Of a stretch of DNA of 10,969 nucleotides, positions 1-10,637 are shown one piece after another. The stretch spans positions 1-10,969 of the forward strand of contig CAYLZE010000055.1 in assembly GCA_964388035.1 (NCBI GenBank), read 5' to 3'. This DNA comes from an uncultured archaeon. GTDB lineage: Archaea > Asgardarchaeota > Lokiarchaeia > Sigyniarchaeales > SOKP01. The translations under genes were made by a program, and so were the position numbers. Every line of letters starts with the position of its first letter. Positions within the stretch are counted from its first letter, which is position 1. The notes under the pieces were generated by a model, which saw only the letters and a list, made by a program, of their open reading frames with translations, had not been told where the DNA came from and searched no databases.

Positions 1-1839
1 CTCTGATTGAACGGAACGGGATGTCCCATAAGTAAAAAGTCTGATATCGCTTCCAATCGTATTATCGATAGTAGTTCCAATTCCCGCTCTCATTGATTCA
101 AGCATCACGCTCATCCCAATTAAGAAACTTACCGTGAGCGCGATCATTGAATAACTTAGAATCGTGCGTTTACGATGCCTTAATATGTTTTTCTCGGTTA
201 ATAATTTAGTTTGCTTGAGATAAGGTCCAAAGAAAAATATTATACCTTTTGAGAGTAAGCGCACAGCAAGGGCAGTTAAAATAATGATACCAAGTAAAAT
301 GAATGTTGGCCCTGCAATACTAGTTAATCCAGCCGTTCTAAGACCCGGTCCTTGACTTATTGAATAGATGGAATCCACGCCCAAGTAAATTAACCCTATT
401 CCAATCAGAGCATAAACAATTCTTTTTTTATAGGGTTTCTTTTCTCGTTCGCTTTTTTCTTCGATTGGATTTAAACATTCTATTAATGGCTTCCTGCTTG
501 CTTTATAACTAGGATAAAGTGATCCGGCTAAACAAGAACCTAATCCCACGGCGAAAGTTATGATGAGGGTGGTTGGATTCAACACGATTTCAAATTCAGA
601 AGGAGCAAAACCCATTCCACCCGAACTTTGAACCAACCCTTGCAGAGTATTTACAGTAAGAGAAAAAATGGCATAAGATATGAAATAGGATGCGACAGTT
701 CCAATCCCTGAGCCTACCAATCCCATTACTACTCCTTGGGTCAAGAATAACCGGAAAGTTTCAGATTTTGAAGCCCCTATGGCTTGAATCATTCCCGTTT
801 CATATTCCTGTTCTTCTCGGATGATATTAAAGATATTCCAAATTAAAACGATTGAAAGAATTAGGGATACCAGACTGAACATTAAAAACATGGTTCTAAA
901 AGTATCCATGGAAATGTTAATGCTATCAAGATAACTGGTTTTTAAATCAACCGTTTTCCAGTATTTTCCATTTTTTAATTGAGATAATTCATGTTGAACG
1001 TTTTCCATTACACCAGCAACGTTATAGATGCTATTTGCACCAATTGCAGCTAAAGTATATTCTCCTTTATGATTTTGCGTACCATCCACGAGTGCATGAG
1101 CATTATCAATATTACAGAATAGTAATGGTCCCGATTGAGAAATAGTGCTTGATTGGTTAGTTTCGGGATTGAAATCAACCGCTTCTGCATTATCCCGTAT
1201 TATGGCAGCTACAGTATACTCAGGCCACGTTCCTGTATTTTGCTCTTTATAACCAAAAGAATCTCCACTTACTGGAAAAATCCATAGACGTGAACCAGCA
1301 TTAATGTTTTTATTCAATAGTATTTGTAAAGATTCCGTAATTACCACTACTTTATCCCCCGTCTTTTGGTCTTTATAGGCAAGGAGATCATCTATAGAGG
1401 TGGCACCAGATAATGCCGGCACTGCAGCAATAATATAGGGGTCTGAACCTAAAGCGTTCTCATCCTCGCTATTGATATCGAGACCATAAACTTGGGTATA
1501 CGTGCTATTTTCAGCTTGATTCCCTTTATCCGTTCCGCTCACAAAAACATTAAATCCTGAAATTCTATATGCAACGTGAGCAACATTATCCGTGTTTCTT
1601 AAAATATTGTCTATTTCTCCGGGTTGGAACCAACCATCATCATAATTCCAGCGTACGAGCGAATCGGCTGGGCCTAATTGTTGGTTAATCGTGTTTAACA
1701 TCATGGCATTAAAAGAATCAGAAACAATGTTAATTCCTCCGAATAAAGAAACGCCGATAACTAATGTAATTGCGGTTAAAATGTATCGTGCCTTTCTTCT
1801 TCTCATGTTGCGTAGAGCAATTCTTAAAATTACTCCCAT
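1..1839 (-). CDS. FtsX/MacB-family ABC transporter permease (double-repeat type), 3' end outside the window
   Basis: Hand translation from ATG 1839 gives MGVILRIALRNMRRRKARYILTAITLVIGVSLFGG (MacB N-terminal motif plus TM1). The FtsX motif REEQEYETGMIQAIGASKSETFRLFLTQGVVMG lies near 720-820, and a second repeat KNILRHRKRTILSYSMIALTV near 130-195. The segments read are all in the same frame, which runs to position 1. Confidence 0.92.
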   Translation of the reverse strand, partial: MGVILRIALRNMRRRKARYILTAITLVIGVSLFGGINIVSDSFNAMMLNTINQQLGPADSLVRWNYDDGWFQPGEIDNILRNTDNVAHVAYRISGFNVFVSGTDKGNQAENSTYTQVYGLDINSEDENALGSDPYIIAAVPALSGATSIDDLLAYKDQKTGDKVVVITESLQILLNKNINAGSRLWIFPVSGDSFGYKEQNTGTWPEYTVAAIIRDNAEAVDFNPETNQSSTISQSGPLLFCNIDNAHALVDGTQNHKGEYTLAAIGANSIYNVAGVMENVQHELSQLKNGKYWKTVDLKTSYLDSINISMDTFRTMFLMFSLVSLILSIVLIWNIFNIIREEQEYETGMIQAIGASKSETFRLFLTQGVVMGLVGSGIGTVASYFISYAIFSLTVNTLQGLVQSSGGMGFAPSEFEIVLNPTTLIITFAVGLGSCLAGSLYPSYKASRKPLIECLNPIEEKSEREKKPYKKRIVYALIGIGLIYLGVDSIYSISQGPGLRTAGLTSIAGPTFILLGIIILTALAVRLLSKGIIFFFGPYLKQTKLLTEKNILRHRKRTILSYSMIALTVSFLIGMSVMLESMRAGIGTTIDNTIGSDIRLFTYGTSRSVQSE

Positions 1840-2728: not shown

Positions 2729-3919
2729 TTAAATTTTTCCTTTTAAATTGTCAGCTGAGAATGGTCCTTTTTCTCCAATCAATTCACGAGCCTCATCAAC
2801 CTTTTCCCATACATTCCATAGTAATACACCCCTAACTCTACCATCCTTCAAGTAATAAATCACCCCTTCTTCAAATTCCTCCTTCCAATCTTCCACTATC
2901 TCTAAAGAAGAATTCAATTCACCTACTGCCTCATATCCAAGTTCAAAAAGATCGGAATAAAATAGGGATAAATAATCGTAAGGTTCCTTTTCTCCCGCCA
3001 TGTTTTTTCCAGCGATTTCCCCCATCGAAAGGGCGTTATCCTCGTGTTCAACGCGAATGGATTTTTCAAGTAAGGAATTTCGGAAGTTTGCAACATCTCC
3101 CGCAGTATAAATATTAGGATCGTTCGTTTGAAGTAAATTATTTACGACGATTCCGTTATCCACTTTTAAATTAGATTGTTTGGCTAATTCTACATTTGGT
3201 TGAATACCCAAACCTGCCACAATAGTATCAAATTTATAATTCTTTCCGCTTTTGGTATCAACAGAAAATTCTTTTCCTTGCTTCTTTATATTCACGACCA
3301 ATTCTCCAGGATAAACCTTGACTCCGTTTTCGCGATAATAATCATTGATATAATCGCTCAAATTCTTAGGAAAAATTAGAGCACAAATCCCGGTTTCAGG
3401 AAATAATATGGTCACTTCTGCTTTAGGTTTATGCATTTTGATAGCTGCAGCAATCTCCGACCCGATAAATCCACCCCCAATCACACCAAACCTCTTATCT
3501 TTATCAACAAGCTTTTTCAACTGTTTATAATCTTCAAGAGTCCTATAATAAATTATTCCCTCTTCTTGAATATTTGGAAGTTTCCTTGGAGTTCCCCCCG
3601 TAGCTAATAAGAGTTTTTCATATGCAAATTCATCGTTTTGATCATCCATTACTATCTTCTTAGAACGGTCAATTTTGACTGCAGTGCGAGTGAGATGTAT
3701 TTCGGCATCAGTTTCAGTCGAGCCCAAATCAATATCCTCAACATCGTCTTCCCCCTTCCAGAGACCCTTAGAGAGGGGAGGACGTGCATATGGAGGATAT
3801 TTATCATTACTTATGAGTCCAATGGTTCCACTGGAATCAATTTCACGAATTCCTTCAATCGCAGTACTTGCTGCCATGCCCCCACCAATTATAAGATATT
3901 TATAGTTAAATTTAGTCAT
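2729..3919 (-). CDS. NAD(P)/FAD-dependent oxidoreductase, ferredoxin-reductase/AIF-like
   Basis: FAD-binding IIGGGMAA, PYARPPLSK, LLLATGG, NAD-binding VIGGGFIGSE, IYTAGDVA, RVEHEDNA and C-terminal GVIYYL..GVLLWN motifs. GGAAGTGA ribosome-binding motif upstream. Confidence 0.93.
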   Translation of the reverse strand: MTKFNYKYLIIGGGMAASTAIEGIREIDSSGTIGLISNDKYPPYARPPLSKGLWKGEDDVEDIDLGSTETDAEIHLTRTAVKIDRSKKIVMDDQNDEFAYEKLLLATGGTPRKLPNIQEEGIIYYRTLEDYKQLKKLVDKDKRFGVIGGGFIGSEIAAAIKMHKPKAEVTILFPETGICALIFPKNLSDYINDYYRENGVKVYPGELVVNIKKQGKEFSVDTKSGKNYKFDTIVAGLGIQPNVELAKQSNLKVDNGIVVNNLLQTNDPNIYTAGDVANFRNSLLEKSIRVEHEDNALSMGEIAGKNMAGEKEPYDYLSLFYSDLFELGYEAVGELNSSLEIVEDWKEEFEEGVIYYLKDGRVRGVLLWNVWEKVDEARELIGEKGPFSADNLKGKI

Positions 3920-4413: not shown

Positions 4414-5445
4414 TTGACAGAATATAAATCAGAAATTAAGGTAATTGAAGGAATAACTAAGATTAAAATCAACGTACCTTTTGCGGTACGATATGTAAGC
4501 GTTTATTTATTCAAAGCGGGAAGTGAATATGTGCTTTTTGATGCGGGGTTGAATATGGGAAATTGGAAGGAAATATTCTTTGCTGCTTTGGATGAAATTG
4601 GAGTATCCATTAAAGATGTTAATTATTGCTTCATATCTCATGAGCATCTGGACCATGAGGGATTAGCTAATACATTTAAACGGAGAAATCCAAATATGAA
4701 AATTTTAATGCATGATATTACTCATGAAATGCTCAAGTGGGAATCTGACGAAGAAAATATGGGTCACATCAAAAAGGATGCAGAGGAAATGGCTCGGATG
4801 ATGATGAAATATGGCATAAGTGAAGAACAAGGAGAGAAATTGGTACAATGGTTTACCATGTGGCCTAGATACAGAAAGTACGTGAAACCTGATATAATAC
4901 TTCATGATGGAGATGAAATACCTATCAGTAACGATGTACTGAAAATAATTTGGACTCCTGGACATAGCTTAGGGCATATTTGCGTTTATGATACCAATAC
5001 AAGTTATTTGTTTGGGGGTGACCATATATTATCTCGTATTACACCACATATTGGAAACTTCGCAATTAACCCTGTGATAAAACAAAAATATACCGATCAA
5101 GATTTCCACAACATTTTAAAGCGATATCTTAGCTCCTTGGATTTAATCGATAAATTAAATCCTAAAATTATATTTCCAGCCCATCAAGACATTATTTATA
5201 ATCCCCATGAACGCATTGAAGAAATAAAGGCTCATCATGATAAACGCTTGCGGGAAATTTCAGAGTTAATAAGAGATAATCCAATGACTCCCTTAGATAT
5301 TTCTTTTGAACATTTTGGTAATGAATTAGATGATATAAACCGATTTTTAGCGATGAGTGAAGTTTTAGGACACCTCATATTTTTAGAGGAACAAGGAAAG
5401 GTTAAAAGAATAGAACGTGATGGGAAGATATACTTTCAAAGTTAA
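4414..5445 (+). CDS. MBL-fold metallo-hydrolase with probable C-terminal winged-helix extension (TTG start)
   Basis: LFDAG, SHEHLDH (HxHxDH), TPGHSLGH, GGDH and PAH metal-binding motifs. C-terminal LAMSEVLGHLIFLEEQGKV helix. TTTATAT at 4373-4379 upstream. Confidence 0.92.
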   Translation: MTEYKSEIKVIEGITKIKINVPFAVRYVSVYLFKAGSEYVLFDAGLNMGNWKEIFFAALDEIGVSIKDVNYCFISHEHLDHEGLANTFKRRNPNMKILMHDITHEMLKWESDEENMGHIKKDAEEMARMMMKYGISEEQGEKLVQWFTMWPRYRKYVKPDIILHDGDEIPISNDVLKIIWTPGHSLGHICVYDTNTSYLFGGDHILSRITPHIGNFAINPVIKQKYTDQDFHNILKRYLSSLDLIDKLNPKIIFPAHQDIIYNPHERIEEIKAHHDKRLREISELIRDNPMTPLDISFEHFGNELDDINRFLAMSEVLGHLIFLEEQGKVKRIERDGKIYFQS

Positions 5446-5543: not shown

Positions 5544-6440
5544 TTAAGAAGGCATGGTGAATTCTGTAATCTCAGGCAATACTTCAAGTTCGGGATAGAT
5601 TTTACCCGGGAGAGGAGGAGTTCCATTATATACTTCTTCAATATTGATTGAGCCCAAGGTAACTCCTCTATATTTTTTAAATCCCAGGAATGTTCCTTTG
5701 ACAACTTGCGCAATAAATTCCATGGTCATCCCATAAACGGCCACTTTAGCATTTTCAGGTATGGCTTTTAGTTGGCTTTCGTACATCGTTAAGGGAAAAA
5801 CTAATTTCGTGTAATCTGCAGCTAATAATTGAAAACAAGGAATGACAATTGGATATCCATCATGGGGATCCAAAAATGCGATAAATTTAGGATTCATGGC
5901 CCCCGTAAAAATTTGCCTTCCGAATTTATCTAATCTCACTTCTTTCGAGTTGGATTTGGCGGCCCCTTTTGCAATTTTATTTAGAATAATTCCTTTCAAT
6001 ACCTTACCGATAGACACGTCTTGGAGAGGAGAAGCGGAGATAACGTCATTATAAAACACCCTCCAGACATTCATTACTGTAGCATATCTCATTTCCTTGC
6101 TTGTATTAAAAAAGTCGATATCTTCTCCTTCCTTCCTTATTTCTTTAAAGTTCGCTTTGATTTGGAGCATTTGCATGGGTTTTTCAATGGACATGTATAG
6201 ATATCCGTGCTTTGGACGTTTTTGAATGTATTCTTTTGAATTCCCATGTAAGAATTGTCCCCAGACAATTTGCTTGCTTGATTTTGCACGATTGGTTACA
6301 ATAAACGTAAGATGAGGCCATCCTTTTTCATCAATTGTAGAGACTAATTTAACCATCATTGGCGCATGAGTGAATTCTTGCATTTCTCTACTCAATTCAT
6401 TTTTCCAATTACTTGTTATATTTAGATTTTCCAATTTCAT
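5544..6440 (-). CDS. Tandem pyridoxamine-5'-phosphate-oxidase-like (FMN/F420-binding split-barrel) protein
   Basis: Two related halves: VKLVSTIDEKGWPHLTFI...GNSKEYIQKRPK and PKFIAFLDPHDGYPIVIPC...IPENAKVAVYG. Start moved from 6500 to ATG 6440 (or TTG 6434, 5 nt after GAGGTGA), just downstream of the GRE stop. Confidence 0.75.
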   Translation of the reverse strand: MKLENLNITSNWKNELSREMQEFTHAPMMVKLVSTIDEKGWPHLTFIVTNRAKSSKQIVWGQFLHGNSKEYIQKRPKHGYLYMSIEKPMQMLQIKANFKEIRKEGEDIDFFNTSKEMRYATVMNVWRVFYNDVISASPLQDVSIGKVLKGIILNKIAKGAAKSNSKEVRLDKFGRQIFTGAMNPKFIAFLDPHDGYPIVIPCFQLLAADYTKLVFPLTMYESQLKAIPENAKVAVYGMTMEFIAQVVKGTFLGFKKYRGVTLGSINIEEVYNGTPPLPGKIYPELEVLPEITEFTMPS

Positions 6441-6447
6441 CACCTCT
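6441..6447 (-). promoter_or_regulatory. Shine-Dalgarno-like element between the GRE and split-barrel genes
   Basis: Minus strand reads TAA-AGAGGTG-ATG-AAA-TTG. GAGGTGA is complementary to the 16S rRNA 3' end. Confidence 0.65.
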
Positions 6448-8958
6448 TTACATTGCATGCATATCTCTCGATATGATTTCTTCTTGTAATTCTTTTCCAA
6501 TAGTTATGAAATAAGCATTGTATCCCGTGACTCTTACTAATAGTTCTTTATAATTTTCAGGATGCTTTTGTGCATCCCGTAGTAAGTCTGCATTTATCAT
6601 GTTGATTTGCAAAGCTGTACCGCCATTCTCGATATATCCTCTTAGATACGATTTGAATTTCTCGCGATGTTCTTTATCCTTCAAGAGTACACCGGGATTA
6701 AAAGTTATGGTGTGAGATGCTCCATTTGGTAGATAATTAATATAAGATCCTTCTTCGGTCTTTCCGCCTAATACTTTTCCTACAGAATTGGTCACGGCTG
6801 TTGGACCGCTGTTTGCAACTCCTGTAGTGGGACATATTGCATTAGACAAGAATGAACCGTTATTTCTTCCATCGGGAGTTGCTATCGTCCTTGAGGCATC
6901 TGGTCCAGCCCAATAATTCCAAGAGAGCATTCCCGGACGATATTGACAGTTATTTGGGGTTTTATATTTCCATGTTTCATCACACCAAGTTTTCATGACT
7001 TTCCGTGCTAATTCATCATAGTCTTCATTATTAATTCCATATTTTGGAGCTTTATTTTTAAACAGCGTTTGCATTACTGCTTCTTCCTTTCTTCCTTTAT
7101 AATCATGCAATAAAGCTTGCTTTATTTGAGAAATGGTATATTTCTTCTCTTCATATACATATTTCTTAACTGCCAAGAGAGAATCAACCGTGGTGGCAAA
7201 TCCTACTCCCTCAATGGTTATGAAAGCTAATTCAGGTCCCCCATTTCTTACATCGAGCCCTTTTTCTGCGCACCCCCTAATAATTGTTGAAACAAAAGGA
7301 GTGGGAAGCAATTCTGCTCTTAATTCTTCTTGAGGATTGTAAAGATCAACCACATGTTTTATCATGAATTTTACTTGTATGGTCCAAGCATTCCAAAATT
7401 CGTCCCAAGTTTTGAAGTCTTCGGGATCTCCACTTTTAGGTCCTAATTGTTTTTTACTTCTCTTGGGATCGTTGATGAGCATGGGCATATTTTTCCCATT
7501 CCACAACGTGAGTTCAATGCTTTTAGCTAAATTAGGATTGCAGTTAACTGTTCCACTGCGATCATTTCCTTGCATCGTATTCTCAAGACATCCAACACAT
7601 GCATAATTCCATGCGTCTTTTTCTGAAATTCCTTCCAATATCATCCCGGCTATAGAGCGTTCATCAAAATTCAATAAGAAAGGTGCCCCTTGAGATCGAG
7701 AGACCATAGCAATAATCACATTTAATAATCGATCGGGAGTATTCTTATGCAATCTTATGTTCGGTTTAGGTTCTAAGCTCGGAAACCACTCATCTACCAC
7801 TTCTAAAATTGTATAGGTTAATTCATTGGTAAGGTCTTCCCCATTAGGGCCACATCCTGATAAAGTAATGAGCTGTCCAAAAGAAGAATTAATTCCGTGC
7901 TTTCCTCCCATGCACATTAAAGCATCATATGCCGTATGACAATGAAACCAAAAGCTCCCTAAAATTTCTTTTGCAAACTCCTTGGTGATATTTTTTTCTT
8001 TAATTACATCCTTTTCGTACAGATCTCCTAAAATTATATCAAACCTACCGAACGAAGTTCCTGCTCCGGGATATGATTCTTCTGCCATGATCATCATGTG
8101 TGTCATCCATATCGCTTGTACACCTTGCCAAAAGGTTTCAGCAGGTCCCCAAGGCACCCTTTCCAAGCTTTTTGCCATCTCGTCGAGTTCTTTTACTCTT
8201 TCGGGAGTAGTCGCAACTTCTTTTAGCTTTCGGCACTTTTCTGCATACTTTTTAGCCAATTTCCTAGGAATTTCCGCTGATCGCATCATTGCTCGTAATT
8301 CATCTCCCTTGGGACCTTGTTTTTCTTGTTCAGAAAGTTTTTCATAATGTTGTTTTATTGATTCATAAATGTACTTAAATCCTTTCTTCACGACCATCTC
8401 ATAATCACAGATAATATGACCAGAACACGCTCCTGCATTGCCAAATCCGTTATAATGAAAAGCTTTTATGGCATTTCTATTTGTTAATGCTTTTTTCCAA
8501 TATTGTTTTGTTTGCTTTTTTGTAAAACATTTGCTTAATAACGTGCTAAAACGACCCCCCGCAAGAAGATCATTTTCAGAAATGATTTCTTGAGGAACGT
8601 AATCCAATATGACTGTTTCAAAGAATAAGGACCGTCTTTCAGGCAGAGATAGGTCCCAGAAATCTTCGGGTAATTTTACCGGGATAGCCATTGATTCTGC
8701 AGAATAATATGCCCCCTTTCCTTTATTGCCGATCATATCCAGGATATCAGGACCCACATAAAATTCTGCTTCATAGAGTATTACATCCCAATCAACACCA
8801 GTAGTGAAAAACATGAATTGATTATTCCAACTTCTTTCATATCCACTAAAATAATAATCTCTAAGCCATTTAGAGCGTGGTAATAAGTCATGTGCTTGAG
8901 CAACAAGAAATTTTGGCTCATTCCCTTTTGTGACTGAAATATTATCGATTTTACTCAT
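6448..8958 (-). CDS. Glycyl radical enzyme (PFL2/eliminase-decarboxylase-like superfamily), substrate unknown
   Basis: 836 aa. Glycyl radical loop LLVRVTGYNAYF (Gly812), thiyl loop YACVGCLE (Cys457, Glu459), and SFGRFD, GEDLTNELT, ATPDGR, APKYG motifs. Lacks the Cys-Cys pair of true PFL. Confidence 0.95.
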   Translation of the reverse strand: MSKIDNISVTKGNEPKFLVAQAHDLLPRSKWLRDYYFSGYERSWNNQFMFFTTGVDWDVILYEAEFYVGPDILDMIGNKGKGAYYSAESMAIPVKLPEDFWDLSLPERRSLFFETVILDYVPQEIISENDLLAGGRFSTLLSKCFTKKQTKQYWKKALTNRNAIKAFHYNGFGNAGACSGHIICDYEMVVKKGFKYIYESIKQHYEKLSEQEKQGPKGDELRAMMRSAEIPRKLAKKYAEKCRKLKEVATTPERVKELDEMAKSLERVPWGPAETFWQGVQAIWMTHMMIMAEESYPGAGTSFGRFDIILGDLYEKDVIKEKNITKEFAKEILGSFWFHCHTAYDALMCMGGKHGINSSFGQLITLSGCGPNGEDLTNELTYTILEVVDEWFPSLEPKPNIRLHKNTPDRLLNVIIAMVSRSQGAPFLLNFDERSIAGMILEGISEKDAWNYACVGCLENTMQGNDRSGTVNCNPNLAKSIELTLWNGKNMPMLINDPKRSKKQLGPKSGDPEDFKTWDEFWNAWTIQVKFMIKHVVDLYNPQEELRAELLPTPFVSTIIRGCAEKGLDVRNGGPELAFITIEGVGFATTVDSLLAVKKYVYEEKKYTISQIKQALLHDYKGRKEEAVMQTLFKNKAPKYGINNEDYDELARKVMKTWCDETWKYKTPNNCQYRPGMLSWNYWAGPDASRTIATPDGRNNGSFLSNAICPTTGVANSGPTAVTNSVGKVLGGKTEEGSYINYLPNGASHTITFNPGVLLKDKEHREKFKSYLRGYIENGGTALQINMINADLLRDAQKHPENYKELLVRVTGYNAYFITIGKELQEEIISRDMHAM

Positions 8959-9003: not shown

Positions 9004-9031
9004 TTCCCAAATTGGGATTCCCAAATTGGGA
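9004..9031. repeat. Perfect 14-bp tandem repeat x2 (TTCCCAAATTGGGA), each copy containing a palindrome; putative operators
   Basis: 9004-9017 and 9018-9031 are identical, and TCCCAA-A-TTGGGA is an inverted repeat. Lies 46-73 bp upstream of the GRE ATG. Confidence 0.85.
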
Positions 9032-9054
9032 TATAAAAAAGTAATCAAGGTGAA

Positions 9055-9079
9055 AATATAAATCTTCCCTTTTTGGGAA
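9055..9079 (-). promoter_or_regulatory. Putative BRE-TATA for the GRE unit, overlapped by a third palindrome TTCCC-TTTTT-GGGAA
   Basis: Minus strand reads GGGAAGA-TTTATATT (TATA 9055-9062). The palindrome at 9065-9079 shares the TCCC-N5-GGGA consensus. Confidence 0.55.
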
Positions 9080-9285: not shown

Positions 9286-9840
9286 ATGGAAGAATTAGAT
9301 ATTCTTAAAATCGATGATCGAGGTAGAATTGCCATCCCTCTATCTATTCGAGAAATGCTTGATCTTCTTGGGAAAAAAGAACCAAGACTTTTAGTAACTT
9401 GGACACAAAGTGAAAAAGAGCTTAAGCTTAGATTTCTTGATCCTGCTTTAAAACATTTAGATATCAATAAACTAAAACTTCAATTGGAATTAAAAAGTAA
9501 AGAGAAATTTAAAATTTTAAAAATTGACAAGGGTGGGAGGATTGGTCTTACCAAACTGTTAAGAGACCACTTAGAGCTTGAAAAATATTCTTATATCATG
9601 GCCATTAGTAAACCAACAGAAAAAAACACAATTCTAAAGAAAGCCATGGTTCTTCAAATTAAAATTAAGGATACCTATGAATGGAGAGTAATTTGTCCCA
9701 TACCTGAAAATTTAGACGTATATGAAAAAATGTTGAGAGAACAGCATAATATTGATAATATTCAATTTTTTATGACCGATCCATATTATGAGAAAAAAAA
9801 AGTATTAGAAAGAAAATTAACACATCTTTTATCAGACTAA
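9286..9840 (+). CDS. Putative transcription regulator with two AbrB/SpoVT/MraZ-like domains and a C-terminal extension
   Basis: Internal repeat ILKIDDRGRIAIPLSIREMLDL and ILKIDKGGRIGLTKLLRDHLEL matches the AbrB/MraZ D.KGR..IP...R...L signature. Confidence 0.75.
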   Translation: MEELDILKIDDRGRIAIPLSIREMLDLLGKKEPRLLVTWTQSEKELKLRFLDPALKHLDINKLKLQLELKSKEKFKILKIDKGGRIGLTKLLRDHLELEKYSYIMAISKPTEKNTILKKAMVLQIKIKDTYEWRVICPIPENLDVYEKMLREQHNIDNIQFFMTDPYYEKKKVLERKLTHLLSD

Positions 9841-9911: not shown

Positions 9912-10637
9912 ATGGAATTAGATATATTAATAATTGCTAATGGAATCTCAAGTCTCATCGTTTCAATTGTATCCATTATCACGGGTTTAAAGATAGCTTC
10001 AAAGTATTTTCGATATAAAGAGCGGGTATTATTATTTGTAGGCATGACTTGGTTATTGATGTATGAAGCATGGTGGGGGCCCTCAATTTCATTTATATTA
10101 TTACTTCTTACAAATCAAACTTTACCCATTAGATTGTTTTTCTTAATATCCGTGAGTTTTACGCCTGTAGCGATTTGTTTATGGATGATCGCTTTTTTTG
10201 ATCTTGTTCATGAAAAAATGCTCAAACCCATCGCAATCATCTTTTCAATTCAAATTATCCTTTTTGAAATTTATGCTGGCTATTATCTCACTACTGACTA
10301 TTCGGTAATTGTTGAGAGCGTGGGTTTTATCGATGCAAGATATAAATCTTTTGTATTGCTCTTCTTTATCGAGGTTTTATGCCTATTTATAATAACAGTC
10401 CCGCTTTTTGTAAGAGAATCTATTCGTTCCGATAACCTAGAAGTCAAATTAAAAGGGAAATTCATATTATTTGGTTTCATCTTTGCATTAACAGGGTGGG
10501 TATTAGACGCATTTTTAGAATTAGATCTTTTAACCTTATTAATTTACAGGGGATTATTAGTGGTAAGCTCAATTACATTTTATTTCGGTTTTTTTCTGCC
10601 TAAATCATTGAAGCGGTATCTTTTAAGAGAGAATTAA
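9912..10637 (+). CDS. Stand-alone seven-transmembrane protein, function unknown
   Basis: Seven hydrophobic segments in 241 aa by eye, basic loops (SKYFRYKER, VKLKGK) and a C-terminal FFLPKSLKRYL tail. Confidence 0.8.
   Translation: MELDILIIANGISSLIVSIVSIITGLKIASKYFRYKERVLLFVGMTWLLMYEAWWGPSISFILLLLTNQTLPIRLFFLISVSFTPVAICLWMIAFFDLVHEKMLKPIAIIFSIQIILFEIYAGYYLTTDYSVIVESVGFIDARYKSFVLLFFIEVLCLFIITVPLFVRESIRSDNLEVKLKGKFILFGFIFALTGWVLDAFLELDLLTLLIYRGLLVVSSITFYFGFFLPKSLKRYLLREN

Follow-up and report, generated by a model that had tools for sequence, protein, structure and literature searches.

An uncharacterised Cys-x-Glu-type glycyl radical enzyme of a Lokiarchaeia genome and its putative split-barrel partner

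We analysed a stretch of 10,969 nucleotides (the window; positions 1 to 10,969 of contig CAYLZE010000055.1, forward strand) from the genome of an uncultured archaeon of the Asgardarchaeota (Lokiarchaeia, Sigyniarchaeales, SOKP01; GenBank assembly GCA_964388035.1), which encodes a glycyl radical enzyme (GRE) and, directly behind it, a tandem split-barrel protein. The three DNA data sets that match this stretch best are one sediment metagenome and two metagenomes from salt marshes. The plus strand across positions 6448-8958 is interrupted by many stops, and translation places the long open reading frame (ORF) of this region on the minus strand. An earlier reading of the letters (the first-pass annotation) had picked out the active-site motifs of the enzyme and missed the minus strand, the presumably coupled split-barrel partner and the activase that would act in trans. 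The features of the two genes are as follows, with conservation given for an alignment of 91 distinct homologues (69 from Asgard group A, 14 bacterial and eight from Asgard group B; identity down to 43%).

6448..8958, minus strand: catalytic subunit of an uncharacterised Cys-x-Glu (CXE)-type GRE, 836 aa (P0001), identified by its ORF and translation, Pfam, match to the Protein Data Bank (PDB) and AlphaFold2 (AF2) model
8449..8958, minus strand: N-terminal part of ~170 residues, in which the N-terminal helices of GREs are elaborated in a way specific to the family, from alignment spans
Residues 176-181, minus strand: GACSGH segment, motif located at these residues
8416..8418, minus strand: His181 (of G180-H181), by alignment equivalent to His164 of glycerol dehydratase (proposed general acid) and His160 of HypD
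8038..8082, minus strand: EESYPGAGTSFGRFD segment, residues 293-307, from alignments and conservation
7870..7893, minus strand: INSSFGQL segment, residues 356-363, with G361-Q362 invariant
7546..7605, minus strand: Cys (thiyl) loop YACVGCLENTMQGNDRSGTV, residues 452-471, with catalytic Cys457 and Glu459, from alignments and conservation
6910..6939, minus strand: barrel strand RPGMLSWNYW, residues 674-683, from conservation
6700..6729, minus strand: PNGASHTITF segment, residues 744-753, with P744, G746 and S748 invariant and N745 in 89 of 91 homologues
6520..6534, minus strand: glycyl radical motif RVTGY, residues 809-813, with the radical site Gly812, from motif and conservation
6441..6447, minus strand: AGAGGTG ribosome-binding site between the GRE stop and the partner start, read from the sequence
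5544..6440, minus strand: partner, a tandem PNPOx-like split-barrel protein of 298 aa, identified by profile hits, AF2, Foldseek and synteny

P0001 is a genuine, oxygen-sensitive glycyl radical enzyme with the GRE domains and fold, Gly812 and Cys457. Pfam recognised the PFL-like domain (PF02901, 1.3e-120, matching from residue 143) and the Gly_radical domain (PF01228, 1.9e-21), and the best PDB sequence match was glycerol dehydratase 1r8w (1.8e-92, or 7e-157 with a profile), followed at similar distance by HypD, IseG, PFL2 of A. fulgidus, propanediol dehydratase and CutC. Residues 106-139 of the N-terminal elaboration weakly match residues 46-77 of glycerol dehydratase. The AF2 model (mean predicted local distance difference test, pLDDT, of 78) adopts the GRE fold and has template modelling (TM) scores of 0.72-0.78 to propanediol and glycerol dehydratase, HypD, CutC and YbiW, without discriminating among them. 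The structure prediction proposed in the first-pass annotation bore out the fold, but not the active-site loops: pLDDT stays below 50 at the Cys loop, in two further stretches (residues 352-360 and 679-716) and in the Gly domain.

All NCBIfam models of characterised classes failed on P0001. The scores and cut-offs were 350 and 1100 bits for HypD, 347 and 1000 for HpsG, 336 and 1000 for HpfG, 286 and 1050 for CutC, 257 and 1100 for indoleacetate decarboxylase (IAD), 186 and 1150 for HPAD, and 92 and 994 for pyruvate formate-lyase (PFL; TIGR01255). Even the generic PFL2-3 subfamily model TIGR01774 was missed (400.9 bits versus a cut-off of 678.2 bits), as it was by the family relative P0121 (404 bits). 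An exhaustive HMMER search over 1.84 billion cluster representatives revealed a sharp gap in scores between family members (460-890 bits, aligned from residue ~20) and other GREs (at most 340 bits, aligned from residue ~170). In a midpoint-rooted tree of 153 sequences, the family forms one clade with a stem support of 100, and the root divides it from all other sequences; the comparison with characterised GREs was made by HMMER alignments. The closest non-family representatives are themselves unassigned and pass just the generic PFL2-3 model, and no characterised sister group was found among these nearest representatives in the midpoint-rooted tree. The earlier claim that the active site fits no characterised class thus holds up in the failed equivalogs and the isolated clade, as well as in the replaced substrate positions described below: P0001 matches no characterised GRE class and belongs to an isolated, deeply branching family. 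Five representative proteins (P0125, P0127, P0128, P0165 and P0139) that branch within the family clade or as its direct neighbours lack the catalytic Cys (P0125 reads Gly-Phe-His-Glu there), the entire glycyl radical domain, or both, and are therefore probably non-catalytic GRE-like proteins.

Every motif named in the first-pass annotation is present in P0001 at the residues given there, and the segment cores are invariant, or nearly so, among the homologues, well beyond what chance would produce. The CXE motif, as defined in a 2026 review (PMC13450708), is present and invariant as C457-L458-E459, and the test for the two-Cys motif of PFL and TdcE failed, with Gly456-Cys457 found instead. The Cys loop is invariant over V455-G456-C457-L458-E459-N460-T461 and, but for N465 and G469, over G464-N465-D466-R467-S468-G469-T470-V471. 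The stretch YACVGCLE (residues 452-459) holds Cys457 and Glu459 and also Cys454, which had been singled out earlier as an extra cysteine; this position is variable. It is Cys in 55 of the 69 sequences of group A, Val or Ile in those of group B and Pro throughout the 14 bacterial homologues, so that Cys454 is no family feature and has no evident role. H181 is invariant (91/91), and G180-H181 aligns as GH/GH with both glycerol dehydratase and HypD. The core of the segment at residues 293-307 is conserved as Y296-P297-G298-x-G300-x-S302-x-G304-R305-x-D307 with Y296 and P297 near-invariant, and the "YP" within it has no counterpart in glycerol dehydratase, being a true insertion of two residues, in agreement with the YPGAG insertion reported before. 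On the barrel strand, R674, G676, S679, N681 and Y682 are invariant and L678 and W680 near-invariant; its MLSWNYW part (residues 677-683) ends in Trp683, which is replaced by Phe or Tyr in Asgard group B. The NGASHTITF motif corresponds to residues 745-753. W680, N465 and G469 each deviate in one to four homologues. At the glycyl radical site, R809, T811 and G812 are invariant and Y813 is also listed in the conserved motif R809-x-T811-G812-Y813; the GRE fingerprint is RVxG[FWY] (PMC13450708).

The catalytic roles of Cys433, Glu435 and His164 of glycerol dehydratase are given in the same review (PMC13450708). With positions counted on the 1r8w sequence alignment, these three residues map to Cys457, Glu459 and His181 of P0001. 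As glycerol-binding residues of the dehydratase we take His281/Ser282, Tyr339, Asp447 and Tyr640, a list that reportedly goes back to its structure paper by O'Brien in 2004. At these positions P0001 has Ala/Pro299 for His281, Gly300 for Ser282, Gly361 for Tyr339, Val471 for Asp447 and Leu678 for Tyr640, and position 299 (Ala/Pro) is also the one to which Asp278 of HypD aligns. Judged from these alignments, the catalytic triad of the CXE dehydratases is retained and the substrate-holding positions are swapped, mostly to smaller residues, with a different invariant set of polar and aromatic residues in their place.

The partner gene follows the GRE gene at a distance of 7 nt (GRE stop TAA 6450-6448, partner ATG 6440-6438). 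As this gap contains the ribosome-binding site, the two genes are predicted to be translationally coupled. The partner of ~30 kDa has no Pfam match above threshold, no cysteine clusters and few invariant residues. A profile of 18 homologues matched HupZ (1.2e-7), the FMN-binding protein 3in6 (FMN, flavin mononucleotide) and the COG3576 protein 2htd. AF2 modelled two split barrels (pLDDT 86), and the top Foldseek matches were HupZ and FMN-, F420- and heme-binding PNPOx-like proteins, with per-target TM scores of 0.6-0.73 for each half. PNPOx_N is carried by Atlas clusters neighbouring the partner, and scored 21.8 bits, below the Pfam cut-off of 28.1, for a second barrel copy of the source genome (contig C63). 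In some lineages the protein has just one barrel and a length of 136-161 aa. From the modelled fold and its matches, the partner probably binds a flavin.

The two genes are part of a conserved cassette made up of the GRE, a dedicated radical S-adenosylmethionine (radical-SAM) activase and the tandem split-barrel protein. We sampled 92 distinct GRE loci from 151 genomes of the phylum and named GTDB records, counting neighbours within 5 kb: 63 loci had the barrel gene and 64 had a GRE activase; the two occurred together in 57 loci, and 22 loci lacked both. Of the 151 Asgard genomes sampled, 52 (about one in three) carry the GRE family, often in several copies, and members also occur in metagenome-assembled genomes (MAGs) of Hermodarchaeota. 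The common gene order is GRE, activase, barrel. It recurs in the cultured Candidatus Lokiarchaeum ossiferum (CP104013.1 432863-443355) and, among bacteria, in MAGs of Chloroflexota and Desulfobacterales. Because the clade of these bacterial cassettes (L136-L154; Chloroflexota and Desulfobacterales MAGs) is the sister of Asgard group A to the exclusion of group B (support 99), the tree indicates inter-domain transfer of the whole three-gene cassette, in either direction.

In the source genome (5.47 Mb, 33% GC, ~11 GREs and six activases) the cassette is scattered. Three copies of the family GRE lie on the window contig (C55) and on contigs C63 and C11 and are 66-70% identical to each other; of the three barrel copies, two lie beside the C55 and C63 GREs and one lies 20 kb from the C11 GRE. 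The single cassette-type activase is found at C11:76957-77838, and none is encoded in the window. This protein reaches 328 bits with TIGR02494 (cut-off 174), and its identity with activases inside orthologous cassettes is 57-74%. As this sole cognate activase sits on another contig, the window GRE would have to be activated in trans. At C11:76957-81300 (L021 8934-13309) the activase gene stands in a row with those of a group II decarboxylase dependent on pyridoxal phosphate (468 aa), the third barrel paralogue and a DUF447 protein; in 16 of the 92 loci, a DUF447 gene comes after the barrel gene. All three GRE paralogues carry the complete set of fingerprint residues, which points to a single type of substrate for the whole family. 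Five further GREs of this genome adjoin an activase; they fall into other clades, which are just as unassigned, and are 28-37% identical to one another, except for the C127/C58 pair (63%). None of these five GRE-activase pairs has a split-barrel partner.

Pairwise identities of GREs and partners correlate with a Spearman coefficient of 0.93 over 69 loci, with the caveat that related genomes are not independent samples. The window partner is closest to the partners that stand beside orthologues of the window GRE, and not to its own genomic paralogues. These comparisons show that the GRE-barrel pair was duplicated and passed on as a unit; co-divergence alone says nothing of physical contact. Retention, the predicted translational coupling and the paralogue-specific co-divergence favour a stoichiometric partner, and the barrel protein is thus most likely a stoichiometric, flavin-type partner of the GRE, acting either as an accessory subunit or in the redox step that comes next.

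Glycerol dehydratase (DhaB1/DhaB2, Clostridium butyricum, 1r8w) and the propanediol dehydratases (5i2g, 9rcp) are the best matches of P0001 in sequence and fold (TM 0.72-0.78). They share with it the Cys-x-Glu loop, the His after the first barrel strand, the Gly motif and activation by a radical-SAM protein of its own gene that carries a ferredoxin-like insert, which is also the type of the cassette activase. P0001 differs from them by a Foldseek identity of only ~25%, the YP insertion, the elaborated N-terminus and its archaeal lineage, and its locus has the split-barrel partner where dehydratases have an alcohol or aldehyde dehydrogenase neighbour. The trans-4-hydroxy-L-proline dehydratase HypD (6vxc) resembles P0001 in the CXE loop, in His160 (= His181) and in the Tyr-Arg at 673-674, but has Asp278 at the position of Ala/Pro299. 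In YbiW, PflD and HplG (8id7, 8id0, 7vua) the CXE loop deprotonates a substrate hydroxyl, as is proposed here for P0001. YbiW matches the fold of P0001 with a TM score of 0.75, and one P0001 subclade has sugar-related neighbours (GH38, PfkB and the major facilitator superfamily, MFS); sequence scores of the three enzymes (205-233 bits) are nevertheless below those of the dehydratases, and no phosphosugar-pathway genes are conserved across the P0001 family. The multi-subunit GREs HPAD (alpha-gamma), BSS (alpha-beta-gamma) and MASS (alpha-beta-gamma-delta) likewise have a small conserved accessory gene encoded with them. Their accessories are proteins like high-potential iron-sulfur proteins (HiPIP-like, [4Fe-4S]) or rubredoxin-like (PMC13450708), whereas here the accessory gene encodes a 30-kDa tandem PNPOx-like barrel. 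PFL2/PflD of A. fulgidus (2f3o) is, like P0001, an archaeal PFL-like GRE and its function is debated; it belongs to a different clade (257 bits), and no split-barrel partner has been reported for it.

We consider it rather probable that the family consists of CXE-type 1,2-eliminases or ring-opening isomerases that act on a substrate outside the known ones. That both the Cys-x-Glu loop and the His of the dehydratases are retained makes elimination-type chemistry a reasonable expectation. Following established GRE chemistry (PMC13450708), the activase would place the radical on Gly812, and the resulting thiyl radical at Cys457 would take a hydrogen from the hydroxyl-bearing (carbinol) carbon of the substrate. 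Glu459 would deprotonate the substrate hydroxyl and His181 would protonate the leaving group at the adjacent carbon, aiding its loss; return of the hydrogen at the end would complete the reaction, which would be either a 1,2-elimination or a ring-opening isomerisation like those of YbiW, PflD and HplG. A substrate other than the known ones is expected because Ser282, Tyr339, Asp447 and Tyr640 of glycerol dehydratase are replaced by Gly300, Gly361, Val471 and Leu678. The set that would take over in the family (Y296, S302, Q362, N460, T461, D466, R467, S468, R674, S679, W680, N681, Y682, N745 and S748) suggests a larger, polar, possibly anionic hydroxylated substrate.

Three points weigh against an eliminase or isomerase with such a substrate. 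The AF2 model is unreliable at the active-site loops, and we infer the pocket-lining residues solely through the alignment with glycerol dehydratase. HPAD-type decarboxylases also carry the CXE motif (Cys503/Glu505). The hints at a substrate from neighbouring genes are weak and inconsistent, since beyond activase and partner the neighbours are lineage-specific.

Among the alternatives, the one that survives best is that GRE and split barrel form a holoenzyme with chemistry new to GREs, such as elimination combined with flavin redox, or radical control by a flavin. In favour of it are a partner kept across two domains of life, predicted to be translationally coupled and co-diverging paralogue by paralogue, the five GRE-activase pairs of the same genome without such a partner, and the restriction of known GRE small subunits to HiPIP-like or rubredoxin-like proteins (PMC13450708). 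The few invariant residues of the partner speak against it, as do the 22 of 92 GRE loci that lack both partner and activase in their vicinity, which may, however, be additional paralogues supplied in trans. Taken as a whole we regard this alternative as doubtful. A holoenzyme in which a flavin- or heme-type accessory subunit replaces the HiPIP-like or rubredoxin-like one, with a reaction outside the current GRE catalogue, is somewhat easier to envisage and stands as a tentative possibility.

It is improbable that the enzyme is a new type of decarboxylase acting on aryl- or alkyl-acetates. Such a reading would fit with the CXE motif of HPAD, the conserved aromatics W680 and Y682, and the FCD-type GntR regulators, which typically sense carboxylates and lie directly upstream of the cassette in five or six bacterial loci. 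The decarboxylase models, however, score lowest among the CXE classes (IAD 257 and HPAD 186 bits), the dehydratase-type His181 is invariant, and the cassette has no HPAD-type gamma subunit. Of the new elimination or decarboxylation chemistry put forward in the first-pass annotation, elimination thus retains the backing of Cys-x-Glu and His181, and decarboxylation is less likely.

It is very improbable that the enzyme is a hydrocarbon-activating X-succinate synthase (alkyl- or benzylsuccinate synthase), as has been proposed for Hermodarchaeota GREs. Zhang et al. 2021 (PMC8163825) read single-Cys Asgard GREs, which may or may not be of this family, as Ass/Bss, and Hermodarchaeota MAGs do carry the family. 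The BSS and MASS structures nevertheless reach 152-206 bits as against 314 for the dehydratases, the Glu and His of the eliminases are invariant and the conserved pocket residues polar, and the third cassette gene is the split barrel; no genes for HiPIP-like beta or gamma subunits were seen among the cassette neighbours, a survey that covered ORFs from about 70-80 aa upwards. A pyruvate or 2-oxoacid formate-lyase, which is assumed in Asgard metabolic models and in database names of homologues ("pyruvate formate lyase family protein", "formate C-acetyltransferase") and in line with which 2-oxoacid-formate lyases, perhaps of this family, were invoked in MK-D1 (Imachi et al. 2020), is hardly credible, given that the Cys loop reads Gly456-Cys457 where the two-Cys motif, essential and confined to PFL and TdcE (PMC13450708), would be required, that TIGR01255 gave 92 bits against 994, and that PFL was the weakest full-length PDB match.

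The remaining features of the window are the following.

9912-10637, plus strand: multi-pass membrane protein of 241 aa without Pfam family, upstream of the GRE
9286-9840, plus strand: protein of 184 aa with two AbrB/MraZ-like repeats, divergent from the GRE across the palindromes
9005..9078, unstranded: three TCCC-N5-GGGA palindromes, candidate operator, 59-120 nt upstream of the GRE start
4414-5445, window neighbour: hydrolase of the metallo-beta-lactamase (MBL) fold, best PDB match 2zo4 (unassigned)
2729-3919, minus strand: oxidoreductase dependent on flavin adenine dinucleotide, like apoptosis-inducing factor, from PDB matches
1-1839, minus strand: MacB/FtsX-type ABC permease gene, a few kb from the C55 GRE and beside the MBL-fold gene

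Within the window GRE subclade, each of the five members has the gene of the 241-aa membrane protein next to its GRE, as does L115; the protein may be a transporter for the GRE substrate. The 184-aa AbrB/MraZ-like protein is a candidate regulator; orthologous loci have a different gene of 235-238 aa at this position. Two of the three palindromes are identical and abut each other, and they form the sole cluster of this motif in the 5.47-Mb genome, which has 68 isolated sites elsewhere. Since the palindromes are absent upstream of orthologous GREs, they are likely a lineage-specific, putative operator. A reading of the MBL-fold gene as an alkylsulfatase, together with the SCP2 gene of relatives, was rejected, as the best PDB match is 2zo4 and no sulfatase matched. 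The oxidoreductase matches eukaryotic apoptosis-inducing factor 1 (218 bits) better than bacterial putidaredoxin and ferredoxin reductases (156 bits). A MacB/FtsX-type permease gene also lies at L023 5345-7196, a few kb from the C63 GRE and again beside an MBL-fold gene, and the two permease/MBL-fold pairs may be a remnant of a duplicated block.

Across the sampled loci, MFS transporters occur near the GRE in nine loci, and some Lokiarchaeia loci contain an S1 sulfatase (11), a nitronate-monooxygenase-like FMN enzyme (13) or a thioredoxin-reductase-like flavoprotein (13). The S1-family sulfatase and the nitronate-monooxygenase-like enzyme often stand after the cassette (L056, L063, L101-L135 and other Lokiarchaeia loci). 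The subclade L057-L059 has a GH38 alpha-mannosidase, a PfkB kinase and an MFS gene upstream, and an SCP2 protein is encoded between the barrel gene and the activase.

Neither the GRE family nor a split-barrel GRE partner was found described in the full-text literature. New here are a fingerprint resolved to single residues and shown to be invariant, the lower weight given to Cys454, the scattering of three GREs, three barrels and one activase over one genome, and the co-divergence of paralogous pairs. With the fingerprint, members of the family can be recognised precisely, and a few residues are singled out for mutation. All PFL-like GREs of characterised function are bacterial, and whole clades, archaeal ones above all, lack validation (2026 review, PMC13450708). 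The family is usually mislabelled, often as pyruvate formate-lyase family protein or formate C-acetyltransferase in databases, and genome-based metabolic models treat it as a pyruvate formate-lyase or interpret it as hydrocarbon-activating. The split-barrel partner, if confirmed as such, would be a new class of GRE accessory protein. Should the holoenzyme exist, a function would for the first time be assigned to a PFL-like GRE of archaea, and the enzyme would replace the "2-oxoacid formate-lyase" step in models of Asgard syntrophy and eukaryogenesis. If the family is neither a pyruvate formate-lyase nor hydrocarbon-activating, the fermentative or syntrophic metabolism inferred for the closest archaeal relatives of eukaryotes would partly need revision.

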